Positions 41,269-52,273 of a stretch of 64,000 bases of DNA are shown here, piece after piece. Position 1 is the first letter of the stretch. Every line of letters begins with the position of its first letter. The position numbers and the translations under genes are program-made. The notes beneath the pieces were generated by a model. It was given only the letters and a program-made list of their open reading frames with translations, did not search any database and had not been told where the DNA came from. Location of the stretch: assembly GCF_002854065.1 (NCBI RefSeq), contig NZ_CP024147.1. One strand, 5' to 3'. This DNA is from Escherichia coli. GTDB taxonomy: Bacteria > Pseudomonadota > Gammaproteobacteria > Enterobacterales > Enterobacteriaceae.

Positions 41269-42564
<1,296 letters not shown>

Positions 42565-42710
42565 AACTATCAGCCGGGTCATTATCGCCTGGCTGATTTT
42601 TAGCTTACTGTAAATTATCTCATTTATTACATACATTAGCTTACAATCGCTTTAAATATGACAGCATAACCTTTACATAATTTAGTTCCAGAAAACAATC
42701 ATTCGGAAAA

Positions 42711-44186
42711 ATGATTCAGTCAACACGTATTTCCATGGGGTTATTCTTTAAATGTTTTTTATCGTTAACGAAAATTGATCCTGGTCAAAACTATATATCT
42801 CTGCCATCAATAAAATCCAGCACTCACATTGCTCTCCTTTTTATGGTTTCTATGGGTACACAAAAATTAAAAGCTCAAAGCTTTTTTATTTTCAGTTTAT
42901 TGCTGACGTTAATTTTATTTTGCATTACTACCTTATATAACGAAAACACAAATGTAAAACTCATCCCACAGATGAATTACCTGATGGTTGTTGTGGCTTT
43001 GTTTTTCCTTAACGCCGTCATTTTTCTTTTCATGTTAATGAAATATTTCACTAACAAACAAATTTTACCAACACTCATTTTAAGCCTTGCATTTTTAAGT
43101 GGCCTTATCTATTTAGTTGAAACCATTGTAATTATCCATAAACCAATTAACGGCAGTACACTGATCCAGACAAAGTCGAATGATGTTTCTATTTTCTATA
43201 TTTTCCGCCAACTCAGTTTTATTTGTTTAACCTCGCTGGCGCTCTTTTGTTATGGAAAAGACAACATCCTTGACAACAATAAGAAAAAAACTGGCATTCT
43301 GTTGCTGGCGCTGATTCCTTTTTTAGTTTTTCCCCTTCTGGCACACAATCTGAGCAGTTATAACGCTGACTATTCTTTGTATGTCGTCGATTACTGTCCG
43401 GACAACCATACTGCGACCTGGGGAATCAACTATACAAAAATATTGGTTTGTCTGTGGGCATTTTTACTGTTCTTTATTATCATGCGTACACGATTAGCCA
43501 GCGAACTATGGCCGTTAATAGCATTATTATGTCTGGCATCGCTATGCTGCAACTTACTTCTACTGACTCTGGATGAGTATAATTATACCATCTGGTATAT
43601 CAGTCGCGGGATTGAAGTCTCCAGTAAACTGTTTGTTGTGTCTTTTCTGATTTATAACATTTTTCAGGAGCTGCAACTCTCCAGCAAACTGGCAGTTCAT
43701 GATGTGCTGACCAATATTTATAATCGGCGCTACTTTTTCAACAGCGTAGAGTCATTATTGTCGCGACCTGTTGTTAAGGACTTCTGTGTCATGCTGGTTG
43801 ATATTAATCAGTTCAAACGCATCAATGCCCAATGGGGACATCGTGTGGGTGATAAAGTGCTGGTTTCAATTGTCGATATTATCCAGCAAAGCATCCGCCC
43901 CGATGATATTTTAGCGCGACTGGAGGGTGAGGTGTTTGGCTTGCTATTTACCGAACTCAATAGTGCCCAGGCAAAAATCATTGCGGAACGTATGCGTAAA
44001 AATGTCGAACTCCTGACCGGCTTTAGTAACAGATATGATGTTCCTGAACAAATGACCATCAGTATTGGCACGGTTTTTTCAACGGGTGACACGCGTAATA
44101 TCTCGCTTGTCATGACGGAAGCAGATAAAGCCTTACGCGAAGCGAAAAGCGAGGGGGGCAACAAAGTGATTATTCATCATATTTAA
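42711..44186 (+). CDS. yeaI: membrane protein with degenerate GGDEF domain (491 aa)
   Basis: N-terminal multi-TM region; C-terminal GGDEF-like domain whose signature reads EGEVF (LARLEGEVFGLLF). Confidence 0.8.
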   Translation: MIQSTRISMGLFFKCFLSLTKIDPGQNYISLPSIKSSTHIALLFMVSMGTQKLKAQSFFIFSLLLTLILFCITTLYNENTNVKLIPQMNYLMVVVALFFLNAVIFLFMLMKYFTNKQILPTLILSLAFLSGLIYLVETIVIIHKPINGSTLIQTKSNDVSIFYIFRQLSFICLTSLALFCYGKDNILDNNKKKTGILLLALIPFLVFPLLAHNLSSYNADYSLYVVDYCPDNHTATWGINYTKILVCLWAFLLFFIIMRTRLASELWPLIALLCLASLCCNLLLLTLDEYNYTIWYISRGIEVSSKLFVVSFLIYNIFQELQLSSKLAVHDVLTNIYNRRYFFNSVESLLSRPVVKDFCVMLVDINQFKRINAQWGHRVGDKVLVSIVDIIQQSIRPDDILARLEGEVFGLLFTELNSAQAKIIAERMRKNVELLTGFSNRYDVPEQMTISIGTVFSTGDTRNISLVMTEADKALREAKSEGGNKVIIHHI

Positions 44187-44366
44187 GTGCAAAAATATTC
44201 AGAGCCATGCTTTTTGCGTGGCTTTTGCATACAATTTATTACTATTACCCCTAAATTTCCCCTCCCCAGCGGCGCAGAGATGAGTATAATTAGCGCCCCT
44301 GTGCCAGGCCGCAATCGAACTTTATCTGGTTTTCTCGTTTCACTAACCGAAGGAGTGCCATTTATC

Positions 44367-45857
44367 ATGAAATTGCACCATAGAATGCTCCGGCATTTTA
44401 TCGCCGCAAGTGTCATTGTGCTGACATCTTCCTTCCTTATTTTTGAACTTGTCGCCAGCGACAGAGCAATGAGTGCCTATCTGCGCTATATCGTGCAGAA
44501 AGCAGACTCCTCCTTTCTTTATGATAAGTATCAGAATCAGAGTATTGCCGCGCATGTGATGCGCGCTCTCGCTGCTGAGCAGTCGGAAGTGTCGCCAGAA
44601 CAGCGGCGCGCCATCTGCGAGGCTTTTGAGTCTGCCAATAATACCCATGGCTTAAACCTGACTGCCCATAAATACCCGGGCTTACGCGGCACACTACAAA
44701 CCGCATCCACTGACTGCGACACAATTGTGGAAGCTGCAGCACTATTACCCGCTTTTGATCAGGCAGTGGAAGGCAACCGCCACCAGGATGATTACGGTTC
44801 AGGTCTTGGGATGGCCGAAGAGAAATTTCACTATTATCTCGATCTCAATGACCGCTATGTCTATTTTTATGAGCCGGTTAATGTTGAATACTTTGCGATG
44901 AATAACTGGTCCTTCCTGCAGTCAGGAAGTATTGGCATCGATCGCAAAGATATTGAAAAGGTATTTACCGGGCGTACCGTATTGTCGAGCATTTACCAGG
45001 ATCAGCGTACTAAACAGAACGTGATGAGTTTGCTGACGCCGGTGTATGTTGCAGGGCAGCTAAAAGGGATTGTGCTGCTGGATATTAACAAAAACAATCT
45101 GCGGAATATCTTTTACACTCATGACCGCCCTCTCCTCTGGCGTTTTCTCAATGTCACGCTAACCGATACAGATTCGGGGCGCGACATTATCATCAACCAG
45201 AGCGAAGATAATCTGTTCCAGTATGTCAGTTACGTCCATGACTTACCGGGCGGCATTCGTGTCTCGTTATCCATTGATATTCTTTACTTTATCACGTCTT
45301 CGTGGAAAAGCGTTCTGTTCTGGATTTTGACGGCGTTAATTTTGCTGAATATGGTGCGGATGCACTTCCGCTTATACCAAAATGTGTCGCGAGAAAATAT
45401 TAGTGATGCGATGACTGGACTGTATAATCGCAAAATTTTAACCCCTGAACTGGAGCAGCGGTTGCAGAAACTGGTGCAATCCGGTTCTTCGGTGATGTTT
45501 ATTGCAATTGACATGGACAAGTTAAAGCTAATAAATGACACCCTCGGTCATCAGGAAGGGGATTTAGCGATTACGTTGTTAGCTCAGGCGATTAAACAAT
45601 CGATTCGTAAAAGTGATTATGCCATCCGACTCGGTGGCGATGAATTCTGCATCATTCTTGTCGATTCGACGCCGCAAATTGCATCACAACTACCTGAACG
45701 TATCGAAAAACGTCTGCAACATATCGCGCCGCAGAAAGAGATCGGCTTCTCTTCCGGTATTTACGCGATGAAAGAAAACGATACGTTACATGATGCGTAT
45801 AAAGCTTCCGATGAGCGTTTATATGTCAATAAGCAGAACAAAAACAGCCGTTCATGA
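44367..45857 (+). CDS. yeaJ: membrane-anchored diguanylate cyclase with periplasmic sensor domain (496 aa)
   Basis: ORF 44187..45857; start at MKLHHRMLRHFIAASVIVL; intact GGDEF signature (IRLGGDEFCIIL). Confidence 0.8.
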   Translation: MKLHHRMLRHFIAASVIVLTSSFLIFELVASDRAMSAYLRYIVQKADSSFLYDKYQNQSIAAHVMRALAAEQSEVSPEQRRAICEAFESANNTHGLNLTAHKYPGLRGTLQTASTDCDTIVEAAALLPAFDQAVEGNRHQDDYGSGLGMAEEKFHYYLDLNDRYVYFYEPVNVEYFAMNNWSFLQSGSIGIDRKDIEKVFTGRTVLSSIYQDQRTKQNVMSLLTPVYVAGQLKGIVLLDINKNNLRNIFYTHDRPLLWRFLNVTLTDTDSGRDIIINQSEDNLFQYVSYVHDLPGGIRVSLSIDILYFITSSWKSVLFWILTALILLNMVRMHFRLYQNVSRENISDAMTGLYNRKILTPELEQRLQKLVQSGSSVMFIAIDMDKLKLINDTLGHQEGDLAITLLAQAIKQSIRKSDYAIRLGGDEFCIILVDSTPQIASQLPERIEKRLQHIAPQKEIGFSSGIYAMKENDTLHDAYKASDERLYVNKQNKNSRS

Positions 45858-45899
45858 TAACCTTCTGTGATTGTTTGCTTGTAATCTCAGGAGCATGAA

Positions 45900-46403
45900 A
45901 TGACTGAAATGGCTAAAGGAAGCGTGACGCATCAGCGGTTAATCGCTTTATTATCACAAGAAGGTGCTGATTTCCGCGTCGTTACCCATGAAGCGGTAGG
46001 TAAATGTGAAGCGGTGTCAGAAATTCGTGGCACCGCTCTAGGCCAGGGTGCTAAGGCACTGGTATGTAAAGTCAAAGGCAATGGCGTAAATCAACATGTT
46101 CTGGCAATCCTCGCAGCCGATCAACAGGCCGATCTGAGCCAACTCGCCAGCCATATAGGCGGATTACGCGCTTCGTTGGCCAGCCCGGCGGAAGTCGATG
46201 AACTCACAGGCTGTGTCTTCGGCGCGATCCCCCCTTTCAGCTTCCATCCAAAACTCAAACTGGTTGCCGACCCTCTACTCTTCGAACGATTTGATGAAAT
46301 CGCCTTCAATGCAGGCATGCTGGATAAATCCGTTATTTTGAAAACCGCGGATTATTTGCGCATTGCGCAACCAGAACTGGTCAATTTCCGCCGCACTGCG
46401 TAA
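45900..46403 (+). CDS. yeaK: YbaK/ProX-type aminoacyl-tRNA deacylase-like protein (167 aa)
   Basis: ORF track 45900..46403. Confidence 0.8.
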   Translation: MTEMAKGSVTHQRLIALLSQEGADFRVVTHEAVGKCEAVSEIRGTALGQGAKALVCKVKGNGVNQHVLAILAADQQADLSQLASHIGGLRASLASPAEVDELTGCVFGAIPPFSFHPKLKLVADPLLFERFDEIAFNAGMLDKSVILKTADYLRIAQPELVNFRRTA

Positions 46404-46508
46404 CTAGCCTGTCCGTTCAATAAGCAGAACGGACAAAACCAGCACAACCGCAATGGCAAAAAACGATGACGTGATAATCAGTGTCTCGACGAACATTTGA
46501 TCGTTCAT
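46404..46508 (-). CDS. yoaI: small membrane protein (34 aa)
   Basis: Reverse strand ATG at 46506-46508: [34 protein letters not shown]; abuts yeaK stop. Confidence 0.6.
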
Positions 46509-46677
46509 AGCATGCCCCCGGGAGATAGCTGTTTTCACGTTATTGTTAGCGTGCACAAATGGCAGTTTGATGACAGTTCGCCTGATTTTTTATGCAAAAA
46601 ACGTAAAGATTTTCTACTTCCTTCCTGCAGCAAGCGTAAAGTAAGCAGGCTTATTATTTTTTGGCAAGGAAACCACG

Positions 46678-47124
46678 ATGTTTGATGTCACTTTGCTGAT
46701 CCTGCTCGGGTTAGCTGCGCTGGGCTTTATCAGTCATAACACCACTGTCGCCGTTTCAATTCTGGTGTTGATTATTGTCCGCGTCACACCGTTAAGCACC
46801 TTTTTCCCGTGGATTGAAAAACAGGGGCTAAGTATCGGGATAATCATTCTGACGATTGGCGTTATGGCCCCCATCGCCAGCGGGACGCTACCGCCCTCAA
46901 CCCTGATTCACTCGTTTCTGAACTGGAAATCGCTGGTGGCAATTGCAGTAGGCGTTATTGTCTCCTGGCTGGGGGGGCGCGGCGTGACGTTAATGGGCAG
47001 CCAGCCGCAACTGGTCGCCGGGCTGCTGGTGGGCACTGTTTTAGGCGTGGCGCTGTTTCGCGGCGTACCGGTTGGCCCGCTTATTGCCGCGGGTCTGGTT
47101 TCGCTGATTGTGGGGAAGCAGTAG
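46678..47124 (+). CDS. yeaL: UPF0756-family inner membrane protein (148 aa)
   Basis: ORF track; four hydrophobic helices. Confidence 0.8.
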
Positions 47125-47902
47125 TTAATCCCGCAATATATCGGCCTGGCGTTTGCCCCAGGCCTTTCTTAAACATAGTAATAAAGGCTGTTGTTGAATC
47201 ATACCCCAGCGTATGAGCAACTTTCTGTACAGTATCGCCTTTCACTAATCCCTGAAGCGCCATAATCAGCTGTAACTGCTGACGCCACTGGCGAAAACTC
47301 AACCCCGTCTCTTTTACTATCAGTCGGGCAAGATTGCGTTCACTCATCGCAAAAAAGCCAGCCCATTGCCCCAATGAGCCCCACTCGACGGGCTCTTTCG
47401 CCATCATCTCCACCATCGTGCGGATTTTAGGATGAGAAGAAACGGGCAAGTGCAGCTGTTGTTGTGGCTGCTGAGGGAGTTCATCAAACAGGACCTGAAT
47501 TAATCTGCAGGTCATCGGCTCAGCACGCTGAGTCGTCGTCCTGTTTGCCAGGGTTAAAATCAATTCCCGGCATAAGGGCGATATTTTCAATGTGCAACAT
47601 GTTGTCGGCATTGTCACTGCGCTGGGTTCGATAAACAGAAAACAGAGTTCAGCGTTAGCTGTCACTTGATTGCTATGCTTCACCCCGCCCGGTATCCAAA
47701 CCGCATATTGTGGCGGCACCATCCACAAAGCATTTTCCACCGTACAGGTAATTGCACCATGTAATGCTAGTATCAGCTGTCCTTTGCGGTGCTGATGTAC
47801 AGGACTGGTTAACTCATCCGTTCCGGCGTGAATACAAAATGCGACCGCGGCTTCATGGTGTCGGTCGGGTTCATAGCCATTGAGATTCAACCTGTGCATC
47901 AT
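47081..47902 (-). CDS. yeaM: AraC-family transcriptional regulator (273 aa)
   Basis: Cupin-like N-terminal domain plus C-terminal AraC HTH; 3' end overlaps yeaL 3' end by 44 nt. Confidence 0.8.
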
Positions 47903-47998
47903 TTTGTCCGAATATAGCGATAATTTGTCATTTTAGCTTGATTCAACATAACAATAAAAACGGTAAGGTACAGCCTCGTTTGTAACAATGAGAAGCAT

Positions 47999-49180
47999 AT
48001 GACCTGTTCAACTTCATTAAGCGGCAAAAACAGGATTGTCCTTATCGCTGGCATTCTGATGATTGCCACTACATTACGCGTCACCTTCACCGGCGCTGCA
48101 CCGTTACTCGATACGATTCGTTCCGCTTACTCGCTGACGACAGCGCAAACCGGCTTATTAACCACCCTGCCATTATTGGCCTTTGCGCTAATCTCACCTC
48201 TGGCTGCCCCGGTGGCGCGACGTTTTGGTATGGAACGTAGCCTGTTTGCCGCGTTACTTTTGATCTGTGCTGGTATCGCAATTCGCTCTCTCCCTTCGCC
48301 TTACTTATTATTTGGCGGTACAGCGGTCATTGGCGGTGGGATTGCATTAGGTAATGTCTTACTGCCAGGATTAATTAAACGCGATTTCCCTCATTCCGTC
48401 GCCAGACTTACCGGCGCATATTCCCTGACAATGGGAGCTGCGGCGGCCCTGGGATCGGCTATGGTAGTGCCGCTGGCTTTGAACGGTTTTGGCTGGCAAG
48501 GCGCGTTGCTCATGCTGATGTGTTTTCCTCTGCTGGCTCTTTTTTTATGGCTGCCACAGTGGCGAAGCCAACAACATGCAAATTTGAGTACTTCACGCGC
48601 CTTACATACTCGGGGTATCTGGCGTTCGCCGCTTGCCTGGCAGGTAACATTGTTTCTTGGGATCAACTCACTGGTCTATTACGTGATTATTGGCTGGCTT
48701 CCGGCGATCCTCATCAGTCACGGCTATAGCGAAGCACAGGCGGGTTCACTGCATGGTTTGCTGCAACTAGCCACAGCAGCTCCCGGTTTGCTGATCCCTC
48801 TTTTCTTACATCATGTGAAAGACCAGCGTGGTATTGCAGCGTTCGTTGCCTTGATGTGCGCAGTGGGCGCGGTTGGGCTCTGCTTTATGCCAGCGCACGC
48901 GATCACCTGGACTCTGCTTTTCGGTTTTGGTTCCGGCGCAACAATGATACTGGGGTTGACGTTCATTGGTCTGCGGGCTAGTTCTGCGCATCAGGCGGCG
49001 GCACTCTCGGGGATGGCACAATCCGTCGGGTATTTGTTGGCAGCCTGTGGGCCGCCGCTGATGGGTAAAATACACGATGCTAACGGTGACTGGTCCGTAC
49101 CACTAATGGGTGTTGCAATACTTTCACTACTGATGGCGATTTTCGGACTTTGCGCCGGGAGAGACAAAGAAATTCGCTAA
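47999..49180 (+). CDS. yeaN: MFS transporter (393 aa), divergent from yeaM
   Basis: ORF track 47999..49180. Confidence 0.8.
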   Translation: MTCSTSLSGKNRIVLIAGILMIATTLRVTFTGAAPLLDTIRSAYSLTTAQTGLLTTLPLLAFALISPLAAPVARRFGMERSLFAALLLICAGIAIRSLPSPYLLFGGTAVIGGGIALGNVLLPGLIKRDFPHSVARLTGAYSLTMGAAAALGSAMVVPLALNGFGWQGALLMLMCFPLLALFLWLPQWRSQQHANLSTSRALHTRGIWRSPLAWQVTLFLGINSLVYYVIIGWLPAILISHGYSEAQAGSLHGLLQLATAAPGLLIPLFLHHVKDQRGIAAFVALMCAVGAVGLCFMPAHAITWTLLFGFGSGATMILGLTFIGLRASSAHQAAALSGMAQSVGYLLAACGPPLMGKIHDANGDWSVPLMGVAILSLLMAIFGLCAGRDKEIR

Positions 49181-49234
49181 TATCCGGTGCTATAGTGACG
49201 TGACAAATCATGCGTGAAAGGGAGAACAAACACG

Positions 49235-49582
49235 ATGAATATTCAGTGCAAACGCGTTTATGATCCGGCAGAACAGAGCGATGGTTATCGCGTACTGGTC
49301 GACCGCCTCTGGCCGCGCGGTATCAAAAAAACCGATTTAGCCCTTGATGAGTGGGATAAAGAAATCACGCCGTCAACGGAACTGCGCAAAGCCTTTCACG
49401 GCGAAGTCGTCGATTTTGCAACCTTTCGCGAGCAATATCTTGCAGAACTGGCACAACACGAGCAAGAAGGAAAGCGGCTGGCGGACATCGCCAAAAAACA
49501 GCCGCTGACCCTGCTCTACTCAGCAAAAAACACCACGCAGAACCATGCGCTGGTGCTGGCCGACTGGCTACGTAGCTTGTGA
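49235..49582 (+). CDS. yeaO: DUF488 family protein (115 aa)
   Basis: ORF 49214..49582; start at MNIQCKRVYDP. Confidence 0.75.
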   Translation: MNIQCKRVYDPAEQSDGYRVLVDRLWPRGIKKTDLALDEWDKEITPSTELRKAFHGEVVDFATFREQYLAELAQHEQEGKRLADIAKKQPLTLLYSAKNTTQNHALVLADWLRSL

Positions 49583-49603
49583 TTTTAGTACAGCATCCGG
49601 CGG

Positions 49604-49858
49604 TTATTTTTCACCAGCCGGATGGTCCCGTCGCCACAATGCCCATTCATCAATCGTTTCACCGCCCGGTAATTTGCAATTGTTGCTGACCCCTTGCGCT
49701 GTCTGCACTGGAATGAGCGTCCCGCCCTTCTGCTGGCAATAGACCGACACCGGATTTGCCATACCAATCTGCGGCGGTTTAGGTGCTTCTGGCTGAGAAG
49801 GGGTTGAACAACCAGCCAGGACCAGCAAGCAAGGCAGAACAAAACTGATAATTTTCAT
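49604..49858 (-). CDS. yoaF: DUF333-family lipoprotein (84 aa)
   Basis: Signal peptide plus lipobox MKIISFVLPCLLVLAGCS. Confidence 0.75.
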   Translation of the reverse strand: MKIISFVLPCLLVLAGCSTPSQPEAPKPPQIGMANPVSVYCQQKGGTLIPVQTAQGVSNNCKLPGGETIDEWALWRRDHPAGEK

Positions 49859-50040
49859 TTATTGATCTCACATATGTATCCAAGCTTAGAGTATCGCGGT
49901 ATCGTTTTGTTTTGCAGCACTATTTTTATTACATTCACTCAAAACATATTACGTCTTATTTCATCTTTGTTGATGATGTTTTATCATGCCTGCAAAGATT
50001 AAATAATCAGCATTTACCCGCCGTATCCTGGAGTTGTTCC

Positions 50041-51066
50041 GTGTCAGATCAGATTATCGCCCGCGTCTCGCAATCCCTTGCCAAAGAACAGTCACTGGAA
50101 AGTCTGGTCCGACAGCTTCTGGAGATGCTGGAAATGGTCACTGATATGGAATCAACCTACCTGACCAAAGTGGATGTCGAAGCGCGCCTGCAGCATATTA
50201 TGTTTGCCCGTAACAGCCAGAAAATGCACATCCCGGAGAATTTTACCGTCTCGTGGGATTACTCGTTATGCAAACGCGCCATTGATGAAAACTGCTTTTT
50301 CAGCGATGAAGTCCCTGACCGTTGGGGCGACTGTATTGCGGCACGCAATCTTGGCATCACCACATTTCTGAGCACGCCAATTCACTTACCGGATGGATCA
50401 TTCTATGGCACGCTTTGCGCCGCCAGCAGTGAGAAGCGCCAGTGGAGTGAACGCGCGGAACAGGTTTTACAGTTATTCGCCGGACTGATTGCACAATATA
50501 TTCAAAAAGAGGCATTGGTTGAACAGCTGCGCGAAGCTAATGCTGCGCTGATTGCGCAATCGTATACCGACTCGTTAACCGGGCTACCGAATCGGCGGGC
50601 GATTTTTGAAAATCTGACGACGCTGTTTTCCCTCGCCCGGCATCTTAACCATAAGATAATGATCGCGTTTATCGATCTGGATAACTTCAAATTAATCAAT
50701 GATCGTTTTGGTCATAATAGTGGCGATCTGTTTCTCATTCAGGTTGGCGAGCGCCTTAATACGCTCCAGCAAAATGGCGAAGTTATTGGTCGTCTCGGTG
50801 GTGATGAGTTTTTGGTTGTTTCACTAAACAACGAGAATGCGGATATTTCGTCGCTGCGAGAACGTATTCAACAGCAAATACGTGGAGAATATCACTTAGG
50901 TGATGTTGATTTGTATTATCCCGGTGCCAGTCTTGGCATAGTAGAAGTCGATCCTGAAACGACCGATGCAGACAGTGCCCTGTATGCTGCCGATATCGCG
51001 ATGTATCAGGAGAAAAAACACAAACAGAAAACACCTTTTGTCGCGCATCCAGCGCTACATTCCTGA
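50041..51066 (+). CDS. yeaP: GAF-GGDEF diguanylate cyclase (341 aa), GTG start
   Basis: ORF 49912..51066; annotated-length start at GTG 50041 (VSDQIIARVSQ); intact GGDEF (GRLGGDEFLVV). Confidence 0.8.
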   Translation: MSDQIIARVSQSLAKEQSLESLVRQLLEMLEMVTDMESTYLTKVDVEARLQHIMFARNSQKMHIPENFTVSWDYSLCKRAIDENCFFSDEVPDRWGDCIAARNLGITTFLSTPIHLPDGSFYGTLCAASSEKRQWSERAEQVLQLFAGLIAQYIQKEALVEQLREANAALIAQSYTDSLTGLPNRRAIFENLTTLFSLARHLNHKIMIAFIDLDNFKLINDRFGHNSGDLFLIQVGERLNTLQQNGEVIGRLGGDEFLVVSLNNENADISSLRERIQQQIRGEYHLGDVDLYYPGASLGIVEVDPETTDADSALYAADIAMYQEKKHKQKTPFVAHPALHS

Positions 51067-51098
51067 GGCGTATTCACATCCTTTTGATTGGTGATAAC

Positions 51099-51197
51099 AT
51101 GCGAATCGGTATTATTTTTCCGGTTGTAATCTTCATTACAGCGGTCGTATTTTTAGCATGGTTTTTTATTGGCGGCTATGCTGCCCCGGGAGCATAA
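51099..51197 (+). CDS. yoaK: small hydrophobic protein (32 aa)
   Basis: MRIGIIFPVVIFITAVVFLAWFFIGGYAAPGA*; single TM helix. Confidence 0.5.
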   Translation: MRIGIIFPVVIFITAVVFLAWFFIGGYAAPGA

Positions 51198-51199
51198 AG

Positions 51200-51274
51200 A
51201 TGAAAAAAACAACGATTATTATGATGGGTGTGGCGATTATTGTCGTACTCGGCACTGAGCTGGGATGGTGGTAA
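51200..51274 (+). CDS. yoaJ: small hydrophobic protein (24 aa)
   Basis: MKKTTIIMMGVAIIVVLGTELGWW*; 2 nt after yoaK stop. Confidence 0.5.
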   Translation: MKKTTIIMMGVAIIVVLGTELGWW

Positions 51275-51331
51275 CGTCACCTCTAAAAATAGCAAAGGCT
51301 GCCTGTGTGCAGCCTTTGTGCAATTTAAGCG

Positions 51332-51580
51332 TTAACTTTTAATCTTCCTGTAGATAAATAGCACGACAATCGCACCAATAACGGCAACCACGAAGCTGCC
51401 AAAATTGAAGCCATCAACTTTACCAAAGCCAAACAGCGTGCTGATCCATCCGCCGACTACGGCACCGACTATCCCCAGCAGGATAGTCATAAAGAATCCA
51501 CCACCATCTTTACCTGGCATGATCCACTTCGCCAGAATACCGGCAATAAGCCCAAAAATAATCCATGACAGAATGCCCAT
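51332..51580 (-). CDS. yeaQ: GlsB/YeaQ/YmgE-family small membrane protein (82 aa)
   Basis: ORF track; Gly-rich two-helix pattern. Confidence 0.8.
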   Translation of the reverse strand: MGILSWIIFGLIAGILAKWIMPGKDGGGFFMTILLGIVGAVVGGWISTLFGFGKVDGFNFGSFVVAVIGAIVVLFIYRKIKS

Positions 51581-51727
51581 TGTTTCCTCACTTATCTGTT
51601 TTGCATTAGCGGGTTAGTCGCTGATAAAAAGCATAGCACAACATCGGGAGGGCAAGATTTGTGACGAGCATCACGGAGGATTTTTTTGCGATGGCGCAGA
51701 AATTGCGCCATCAACGATCAGTGATAA

Positions 51728-51910
51728 TTACCAACCACAAACATCATGTTCGTTTTCCGTGTCATAAGAACGCACGGTATTCACCAGATCTTTTATCACT
51801 TCAGCCGCCACTTCTGGCACCAGCAAAGTCATCGGCGTCTCTGTTTCATAATCGACAGAAACGCCATTGCTGTTATTGGTGACGGTCACGGTATACGTTG
51901 CTTTGCCCAT
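51728..51910 (-). CDS. yoaG: DUF1869 protein (60 aa)
   Basis: ORF track 51728..51910; 3 nt downstream of yeaR. Confidence 0.75.
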   Translation of the reverse strand: MGKATYTVTVTNNSNGVSVDYETETPMTLLVPEVAAEVIKDLVNTVRSYDTENEHDVCGW

Positions 51911-51913
51911 GAT

Positions 51914-52273
51914 TCATTTCCCGTTATGAATGACTTTCCGTTGTTGCGCACCTTCCATCAGGACTTCAGGAGCCACGAAGAAGTCAATGTTGAAATAAGT
52001 ATCGTCAGTCATGGCTTCAATGTTGTGCCACTTTTCTGGAGGGAACACCGCAAACTGCCCCGCTTCGATAAGGATCACCTGATCAGGCTCTGCACTGTGT
52101 TCATCAGCGTAGCCGAGATATTTGACCGCCCCATGCATAACGGAAAGGCGTGGGTAAACCCCCGGGCGCGTTCCTTTATCAAGATGACGTTCGAATATTC
52201 CGGCAGGCGCAGTTTGTTTATTCCAGAAAGGCGTTGAGCGCGTATGAATATAATTCTGTGGGATTTGCAGCAT
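51914..52273 (-). CDS. yeaR: DUF1971 protein (119 aa)
   Basis: ORF track 51914..52273. Confidence 0.8.
   Translation of the reverse strand: MLQIPQNYIHTRSTPFWNKQTAPAGIFERHLDKGTRPGVYPRLSVMHGAVKYLGYADEHSAEPDQVILIEAGQFAVFPPEKWHNIEAMTDDTYFNIDFFVAPEVLMEGAQQRKVIHNGK

Follow-up and report, generated by a model that had tools for sequence, protein, structure and literature searches.

Three genes encoding GGDEF-domain proteins, cdgI (yeaI), dgcJ (yeaJ) and dgcP (yeaP), lie close together on a 64,000-nucleotide stretch of the Escherichia coli chromosome (contig NZ_CP024147.1, assembly GCF_002854065.1; hereafter the window). We consider it likely that CdgI is a non-catalytic, membrane-anchored receptor for cyclic di-GMP (c-di-GMP) that binds other GGDEF domains, and that DgcJ and DgcP are diguanylate cyclases. 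What the sequence analyzed here shows for CdgI is loss of the active site (A-site), retention of the inhibitory site (I-site), membrane anchoring, purifying selection, and genus-wide distribution. The degenerate A-site, the intact I-site, and the c-di-GMP binding of CdgI have already been published (2017), and the genes have been named and studied in K-12.

The first-pass annotation of the window had placed three GGDEF-domain genes within about 9 kb, at positions 42711-51066. The open reading frames (ORFs) are found on the + strand at these coordinates, which run from the cdgI start to the dgcP stop and span 8356 bp, and both the gene names and the GGDEF assignments agree with the RefSeq annotation and with matches to PF00990.

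Domain architecture and active-site residues of CdgI

CdgI combines an integral-membrane sensor domain with a GGDEF domain, encoded in the window as follows:

42711..44186, + strand: cdgI (yeaI) coding sequence, 491 amino acids (aa) as annotated, encoding a degenerate GGDEF protein (ORF and RefSeq annotation)
42972..43667, + strand: MASE4 integral-membrane sensor domain, CdgI residues 88-319 (Pfam PF17158, E = 1.4e-48, 165.8 bits against a cut-off of 28.4)
43692..44165, + strand: GGDEF domain, CdgI residues 328-485 (Pfam PF00990, E = 9e-45)
43896..43907, + strand: intact RxxD I-site, RPDD, CdgI residues 396-399, five residues upstream of the A-site
43923..43937, + strand: degenerate A-site, EGEVF, CdgI residues 405-409 (codons GAG GGT GAG GTG TTT)

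The GGDEF match covers the full profile (1-161 of 161; 152.7 bits against the PF00990 cut-off of 23.8), and among solved structures the domain matches 41 distinct GGDEF-domain sequences, PleD and WspR among them; its nearest solved relatives by sequence are cyclase-type GGDEF proteins. TIGR00254 is passed by CdgI, DgcJ, and DgcP alike, and among NCBIfam models CdgI passes only the generic GGDEF domain model. Hydropathy analysis gives about seven hydrophobic segments between residues 57 and 287, and the MASE4 domain would anchor the protein in the membrane.

The first-pass reading of the yeaI signature as EGEVF holds. The pentapeptide aligns column for column with the GGEEF of the solved structures 6zxm, 3ign, and 8wcn and of homologues, this realignment gave no intact GG[DE]EF, and a whole-protein motif search found none anywhere in CdgI, which therefore lacks the GG[D/E]EF of an active diguanylate cyclase. 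In the DNA, two single-base changes separate EGEVF from GGEEF. The active site is further altered in the xxND motif (D to A) and in GRN (R to G); the residue table of Spurbeck 2012 (PMC3484386) gives KNAHDREGEVF for YeaI against a consensus of KNDHDRGG[D/E]EF. The I-site RPDD aligns with RKSD and RQSD of solved GGDEF structures. Comparison of the I-sites, which had been proposed as a check, yielded intact motifs in CdgI (RPDD) and DgcJ (RKSD) but not in DgcP, which has QNGE at the RxxD position and is therefore without an I-site. These assignments, made from a three-way alignment, agree with the Spurbeck table, which also reports a deviating I-site for yeaP.

The E. coli K-12 protein (YeaI, b1785) is the product of the same gene, with 491 aa, MASE4 and GGDEF domains, EGEVF, and RPDD, and differs in nothing of substance; the sole difference is Y15C, inside an N-terminal extension considered below. 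DgcT (YcdT) and DgcX share the MASE4-GGDEF architecture of CdgI but are functional cyclases, as assigned from the literature (PMC10459773). Most RefSeq E. coli genomes name cdgI a ‘sensor domain-containing diguanylate cyclase’, a label that is misleading for a protein without GG[D/E]EF.

Among known systems, PelD of Pseudomonas aeruginosa and PopA of Caulobacter are degenerate GGDEF proteins that have lost the A-site, keep RxxD, and bind c-di-GMP at the I-site. PelD is also membrane-anchored, with an N-terminal transmembrane region and a GAF domain, while PopA carries REC-REC, and their outputs are Pel synthesis and CtrA proteolysis, respectively. CdgI would follow the same receptor logic, with MASE4 in place of the transmembrane-GAF or REC-REC regions, although it is without a defined output.

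Loss of the A-site in Escherichia and retention of cdgI

A homologue search recovered full-length relatives from 99% to 38% identical to CdgI, with species assigned by cluster names. The A-site motifs below are those of cluster representatives, and the active-site comparison was made over 104 sequences.

E. coli: EGEVF
E. coli, minor allele: EGDVF
E. ruysiae: DGEVF
E. marmotae / E. whittamii: EGEEF in the representative; the cluster also has EGEVF members
E. albertii: EGNVF
E. fergusonii: EGEVF
Lineage P0018: EGKRF
Citrobacter enshiensis and other Citrobacter: GGEEF
Enterobacter and more distant homologues: GGEEF

None of the Escherichia species sampled has an intact A-site; six different pentapeptides occur there, and all sequences at least 64% identical to CdgI that cover the site carry Glu or Asp at the first Gly. 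In every degenerate orthologue, G[RK]N is replaced by G[GS]N and ALYxAK is without its Tyr; among GGEEF homologues, this Tyr is kept in 33/33 and G[RK]N in all but one. Degenerate sequences that extend over the I-site read RP[DE]D there, with one exception, a partial sequence with CPDD.

The Citrobacter genes encode proteins 57-62% identical to CdgI with the same MASE4-GGDEF architecture, and lie between yeaH and a GAPES1-GGDEF gene (dgcJ). Since their loci share the mipA-yeaG-yeaH ... yeaK-yeaL-nimR-nimT neighborhood, they are positional orthologues of cdgI, and they keep GGEEF, DID, IND, ALY, and GRN where CdgI has EGEVF, DIN, INA, ALR, and GGN. The simplest reading is that the A-site was lost once, at the base of the genus Escherichia, after which the dead motif was free to vary while the I-site was retained. 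The loss is dated to this point because the positional orthologues of Citrobacter have remained intact.

Selection on the gene was estimated as the ratio of nonsynonymous to synonymous substitution rates (dN/dS; Nei-Gojobori method) on codon alignments of E. coli, E. marmotae, and E. albertii, with the same genome pairs for all genes:

cdgI, whole gene: 0.07-0.09
cdgI, MASE4 part: 0.07-0.09
cdgI, degenerate GGDEF part: 0.07-0.10
dgcJ: 0.02-0.03
yeaH: 0.01

The gene thus evolves 2-4 times faster than dgcJ and 6-7 times faster than yeaH, yet far from neutrally, and is under purifying selection. It was found in 5418 of the 5426 complete E. coli genomes, with a coverage of at least 80% in 5408. 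The low dN/dS together with this near-universal presence argues for a retained non-catalytic function and not for a decaying remnant.

The distances of neighboring genes conflict in places. In lineage P0018 (locus L004), cdgI is far from that of E. coli (dN 0.24) and dgcJ is close (dN 0.10), while E. fergusonii shows the reverse pattern (cdgI dN 0.16, dgcJ dN 0.25). This suggests recombination or allele replacement within the interval. In addition, between E. coli and E. marmotae the dS of cdgI is 0.84, higher than the 0.44 of the flanking dgcJ and the 0.50 of yeaH. An IS5-family transposase is inserted in cdgI of the complete genome NZ_CP100909.1, and hundreds of CdgI fragments from draft assemblies (clusters P0019 and P0023) end at about residue 280-285 on long contigs, which would fit a recurrent repeat or insertion sequence at this position in some lineage. 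The short CdgI database clusters were also considered as a sign of common pseudogenes; this was rejected, as most of their named members are labeled ‘partial’ and are contig-end fragments.

Comparison with orthologues also bears on the annotated start of cdgI, for which the following codons are the alternative:

42843..42854, + strand: internal Met45 and Met48 codons of cdgI, start positions conserved in other Escherichia species and Citrobacter

Orthologues from E. marmotae, E. ruysiae, E. albertii, E. fergusonii, and Citrobacter are 445-448 aa long, and outside E. coli the frame upstream of their start is open for only 10-23 codons. In E. coli the frame of the 44-residue extension is open, and some Escherichia sequences are also annotated with 491 aa. 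The N-terminal extension of 44 residues is not conserved, and the 491-aa start is probably too far upstream. No clear Shine-Dalgarno sequence precedes either candidate start (Met1 or Met45/Met48).

The G+C content (GC) of the cdgI promoter region and MASE4-coding part (window 42600-43400) is 0.30-0.35, and that of the MASE4 stretch overall is 0.30-0.40, with flanks at about 0.50. Recent horizontal acquisition is not supported as the cause, because all orthologues, including the syntenic Citrobacter genes, have a GC of 0.36-0.39. At third codon positions, cdgI (0.44) is only modestly under its neighbors (0.51-0.53), and the low GC is mostly explained by the amino acid make-up of a membrane protein, with many Ile, Phe, Leu, and Asn residues. 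The AT-rich 5′ DNA of cdgI may be a target of H-NS silencing, which would fit the lack of laboratory expression.

The role of CdgI and competing explanations

The first-pass annotation had predicted YeaI to be catalytically inactive and perhaps a c-di-GMP receptor or scaffold. This prediction is supported by the A-site, I-site, and selection comparisons above and by the experiments of Sarenko et al. 2017 (PMC5635695). There, CdgI is described as having a degenerate A-site and an intact I-site, its purified His6-GGDEF domain binds c-di-GMP (Fig. S4B), and the domain makes strong heteromeric contacts with several other GGDEF domains in two-hybrid assays. Overexpression of CdgI was toxic, the protein was undetectable in standard culture, and cdgI was repressed by CsrA; the authors proposed that CdgI may pair heteromerically with cyclases and thereby inhibit them, with c-di-GMP as the modulator. 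Elsewhere, CdgI is described as catalytically non-functional and placed with DgcT and DgcX in a MASE4-GGDEF family (PMC10459773), RstA binds the cdgI promoter in enterohemorrhagic E. coli (EHEC; PMC6824119), and an SrsR site has been reported between yeaH and cdgI.

Taken together, CdgI is most likely not a cyclase: its GGDEF domain has lost its A-site (GGEEF to EGEVF) while keeping its fold and RxxD I-site. Held in the membrane by MASE4, it would bind c-di-GMP at the I-site, as in vitro binding by others indicates, and would pair with GGDEF domains from other cyclases or from degenerate GGDEF proteins, as seen by others in two-hybrid assays. It may thereby titrate or modulate these partners in a c-di-GMP-dependent manner. 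CdgI would be made only under undefined conditions, given CsrA repression and the reported RstA and SrsR inputs, and selection would have kept it since catalysis was lost at the base of Escherichia.

Several points weigh against this explanation. Spurbeck 2012 (PMC3484386) lists YeaI among enzymes of ‘verified’ activity and reports that the biofilm defect of a ΔyeaI strain in no-salt lysogeny broth (LB) is rescued by WspR, and a later paper (Gut Pathog 2019, PMC6824119) states that yeaI raises c-di-GMP, citing Sanchez-Torres 2011. The I-site binding of CdgI is tied to no physiological partner, signal, or phenotype, and titration is a step that we infer. In addition, among close Escherichia species the A-site columns show no significantly greater variability than the GGDEF domain elsewhere (3/5 vs 21%, P = 0.063), with no excess once E. 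fergusonii and lineage P0018 are added. Excess variability or positive selection at the A-site was rejected on this ground; what we claim for the site is a loss of constraint, not positive selection.

The genetic and c-di-GMP reports speak for CdgI keeping some diguanylate cyclase activity despite EGEVF and feeding the c-di-GMP pool, the rise in c-di-GMP being cited for strain BW25113. The cyclase name given in most RefSeq genomes and the EGEEF of E. marmotae, in which the first Gly alone is changed, point in the same direction. However, both the first Gly and the fourth Glu of the CdgI motif are replaced, the Asp of ND and the Arg of GRN are also altered, and the motif varies across species (EGNVF, EGKRF) in a way that an active site would not tolerate. 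Rescue by WspR indicates that extra c-di-GMP compensates for the deletion, not that YeaI makes c-di-GMP, and the ΔyeaI defect in glycerol medium, reported in the same paper (PMC3484386), was not rescued by WspR; the latter fits a non-enzymatic role, and the genetics are mixed. The RefSeq name is an automatic, domain-based label for a protein that passes only the generic GGDEF model, and later work describes CdgI as catalytically non-functional (PMC10459773 and PMC5635695). We regard residual cyclase activity as very improbable. That cdgI is instead a decaying remnant without function, silent and turning into a pseudogene, is hardly credible. It would be in keeping with the undetectable product in standard culture, the absence of cdgI from Shigella flexneri 2457T (PMC11327459), the single IS5 insertion, the many shortened database entries, and an A-site pentapeptide that differs between species. 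Yet dN/dS stays at 0.07-0.10 over both domains, the frame is intact in at least five Escherichia species, almost all complete E. coli genomes carry the gene, and the I-site is conserved, with a single partial sequence as the exception. Most of the shortened entries are contig-end fragments, and deletion phenotypes of cdgI have been reported in the literature, including PMC3484386.

A further possibility is that the three genes form a functional module in which CdgI acts specifically on DgcJ, and perhaps on DgcP, and that this explains their clustering. When 19 GGDEF gene starts were placed randomly on 4.64 Mb, at least three fell inside 7.33 kb in 0.7% of trials (P = 0.007), and the tandem of cdgI and dgcJ, about 170-190 bp apart, is kept in E. 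albertii, E. marmotae, E. fergusonii, and Citrobacter. The three Escherichia species just named have all three genes packed into 6.2-6.5 kb, a consensus scan found no terminator-like site between cdgI and dgcJ, and CdgI binds several other GGDEF domains (PMC5635695). The text consulted of that paper does not name the partner domains, however, and expression differs, CdgI being undetected in standard culture. The three GGDEF domains are unrelated paralogues, only 26-29% identical to each other in the three-way alignment, vertical descent by itself would produce synteny in a core-genome stretch, and seven unrelated genes separate dgcJ from dgcP. A dedicated module is therefore unlikely, and the conserved tandem allows a functional link between cdgI and dgcJ without proving one. 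Local duplication as the origin of the cluster is ruled out by the low identity of the domains. Rather improbable, in our estimate, is a stronger version of the receptor explanation, in which CdgI would be a c-di-GMP-gated ‘anti-cyclase’ kept since the origin of Escherichia for the formation of dead heterodimers, with DgcJ as the prime candidate partner; in that case, differences between species in the former A-site hairpin, on the side turned to the partner in a GGDEF dimer, would adjust the choice of partner and not reflect mere drift.

DgcJ, DgcP and the surrounding locus

The two predicted cyclases differ in their sensor regions and I-sites and are encoded as follows:

44367..45857, + strand: dgcJ (yeaJ) coding sequence, 496 aa (ORF and RefSeq annotation; the mechanical ORF extends upstream to GTG 44187)
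44457..45278, + strand: GAPES1 periplasmic sensor domain, DgcJ residues 31-304 (Pfam PF17155, E = 6e-151, 501.8 bits)
45606..45647, + strand: DgcJ I-site RKSD (residues 414-417) and A-site RLGGDEF (421-427), from alignment and motif search
50041..51066, + strand: dgcP (yeaP) coding sequence, 341 aa (GTG start preceded by TGGAG; mechanical ORF start TTG 49912)
50089..50505, + strand: GAF domain, DgcP residues 17-155 (GAF_2, E = 1.7e-10, 41.6 bits, cut-off 28.6; GAF, E = 8.7e-9, 36.4 bits, cut-off 22.4)
50770..50811, + strand: DgcP QNGE at the RxxD position (residues 244-247) and A-site RLGGDEF (251-257), from alignment and motif search

The RLGGDEF signature expected in both proteins is thus in place, as is the N-terminal GAF domain expected in YeaP. 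The description of yeaI and yeaJ as a tandem with distinct sensors also stands, in the form of the integral-membrane MASE4 and the periplasmic GAPES1; for the CHASE-like sensors that had been suggested, no CHASE family was found among Pfam matches at E <= 0.01.

DgcJ passes the NCBIfam equivalog NF040885 (745.8 bits, cut-off 500), its GAPES1 domain is flanked by two hydrophobic segments (about 11-29 and 312-334, by hydropathy), and its GGDEF domain matches PF00990 with E = 1e-39 (136.2 bits against a cut-off of 23.8), with an intact GGDEF at residue 423 and an RxxD motif. In Salmonella YeaJ and its EHEC homologue, GAPES1 binds autoinducer-2 (AI-2) with Y210 and D239 as key residues, and AI-2 activates c-di-GMP synthesis by Salmonella YeaJ (Li et al. 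2022, PMC9637222). The window protein resembles these receptors in passing the DgcJ equivalog and in having GAPES1. Its residues 210 and 239 are Y and D, which would correspond to the key pair if its numbering matches that of Salmonella YeaJ. AI-2 binding was shown for those homologues, whereas the window allele is known from its sequence. DgcJ would therefore be a diguanylate cyclase of the inner membrane whose periplasmic GAPES1 senses a ligand (AI-2 in the Salmonella and EHEC homologues), and product inhibition through RxxD is suggested by the motif.

DgcP matches PF00990 with E = 1e-40 (139.3 bits against the same cut-off) and has an intact GGDEF at residue 253. Hydropathy analysis found no hydrophobic segment in DgcP, which places it in the cytoplasm, and it would be a GAF-regulated cyclase without an I-site. 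Shigella DgcP raises c-di-GMP slowly and requires its GG motif (PMC11327459).

The locus is a stretch of the E. coli core-genome chromosome. The 10-kb segment at window positions 42000-52000 has a match in 5424 of the 5426 complete E. coli genomes, and the sequence of strain CUWW06 is 100% identical to it; the window strain is not K-12. In the RefSeq annotation of both CUWW06 and K-12 MG1655 the gene order is yeaG, yeaH, cdgI, dgcJ, yeaK, yoaI, yeaL, nimR, nimT, yeaO, yoaF, dgcP, and the boundaries of cdgI, dgcJ, and dgcP are the same as in the window. Differences from the K-12 proteins amount to 1 residue in CdgI, 2 in DgcJ, and 2 in DgcP. The 2-nitroimidazole regulator and exporter genes nimR-nimT (window 47081-49180) lie between yeaL and yeaO in E. 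coli and Citrobacter, neither gene is present at the E. albertii and E. marmotae loci, and E. fergusonii has a major facilitator superfamily (MFS) gene without the AraC-type regulator. These differences account for the 6.2-6.5 kb spacing of the three GGDEF genes in the latter three species.

The consensus scan also gave one terminator-like site upstream of cdgI:

42569..42597, + strand: terminator-like hairpin and T-run after yeaH (11-pair stem with 6 G-C pairs, then TTTTT; consensus scan only)

This hairpin would separate the yeaGH transcription unit from cdgI. No Rfam match to a structured RNA or riboswitch was found at gathering thresholds in window 40-53 kb. The 180-bp spacer between cdgI and dgcJ (window 44184-44366) is stop-free after the cdgI TAA, and for this reason the mechanical dgcJ ORF begins at GTG 44187, right after the cdgI stop. 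A cdgI-dgcJ read-through fusion, with one TAA and an open linker of 60 codons in a shared frame, was rejected because it is not conserved across species: the open linker in a shared frame occurs only in E. coli and E. marmotae, the genes are out of frame in E. albertii, E. fergusonii, and one Citrobacter, and stop codons interrupt the linker of the other Citrobacter. The shared frame therefore looks like coincidence.

Our additions to what is known of these genes are modest, namely a date for the A-site loss, an estimate of selection, and remarks on the start codon and annotation. Both the RefSeq ‘diguanylate cyclase’ label and the 491-aa start of cdgI are worth correcting, and the purifying selection that followed the loss of the A-site argues that CdgI has a real, non-enzymatic job.

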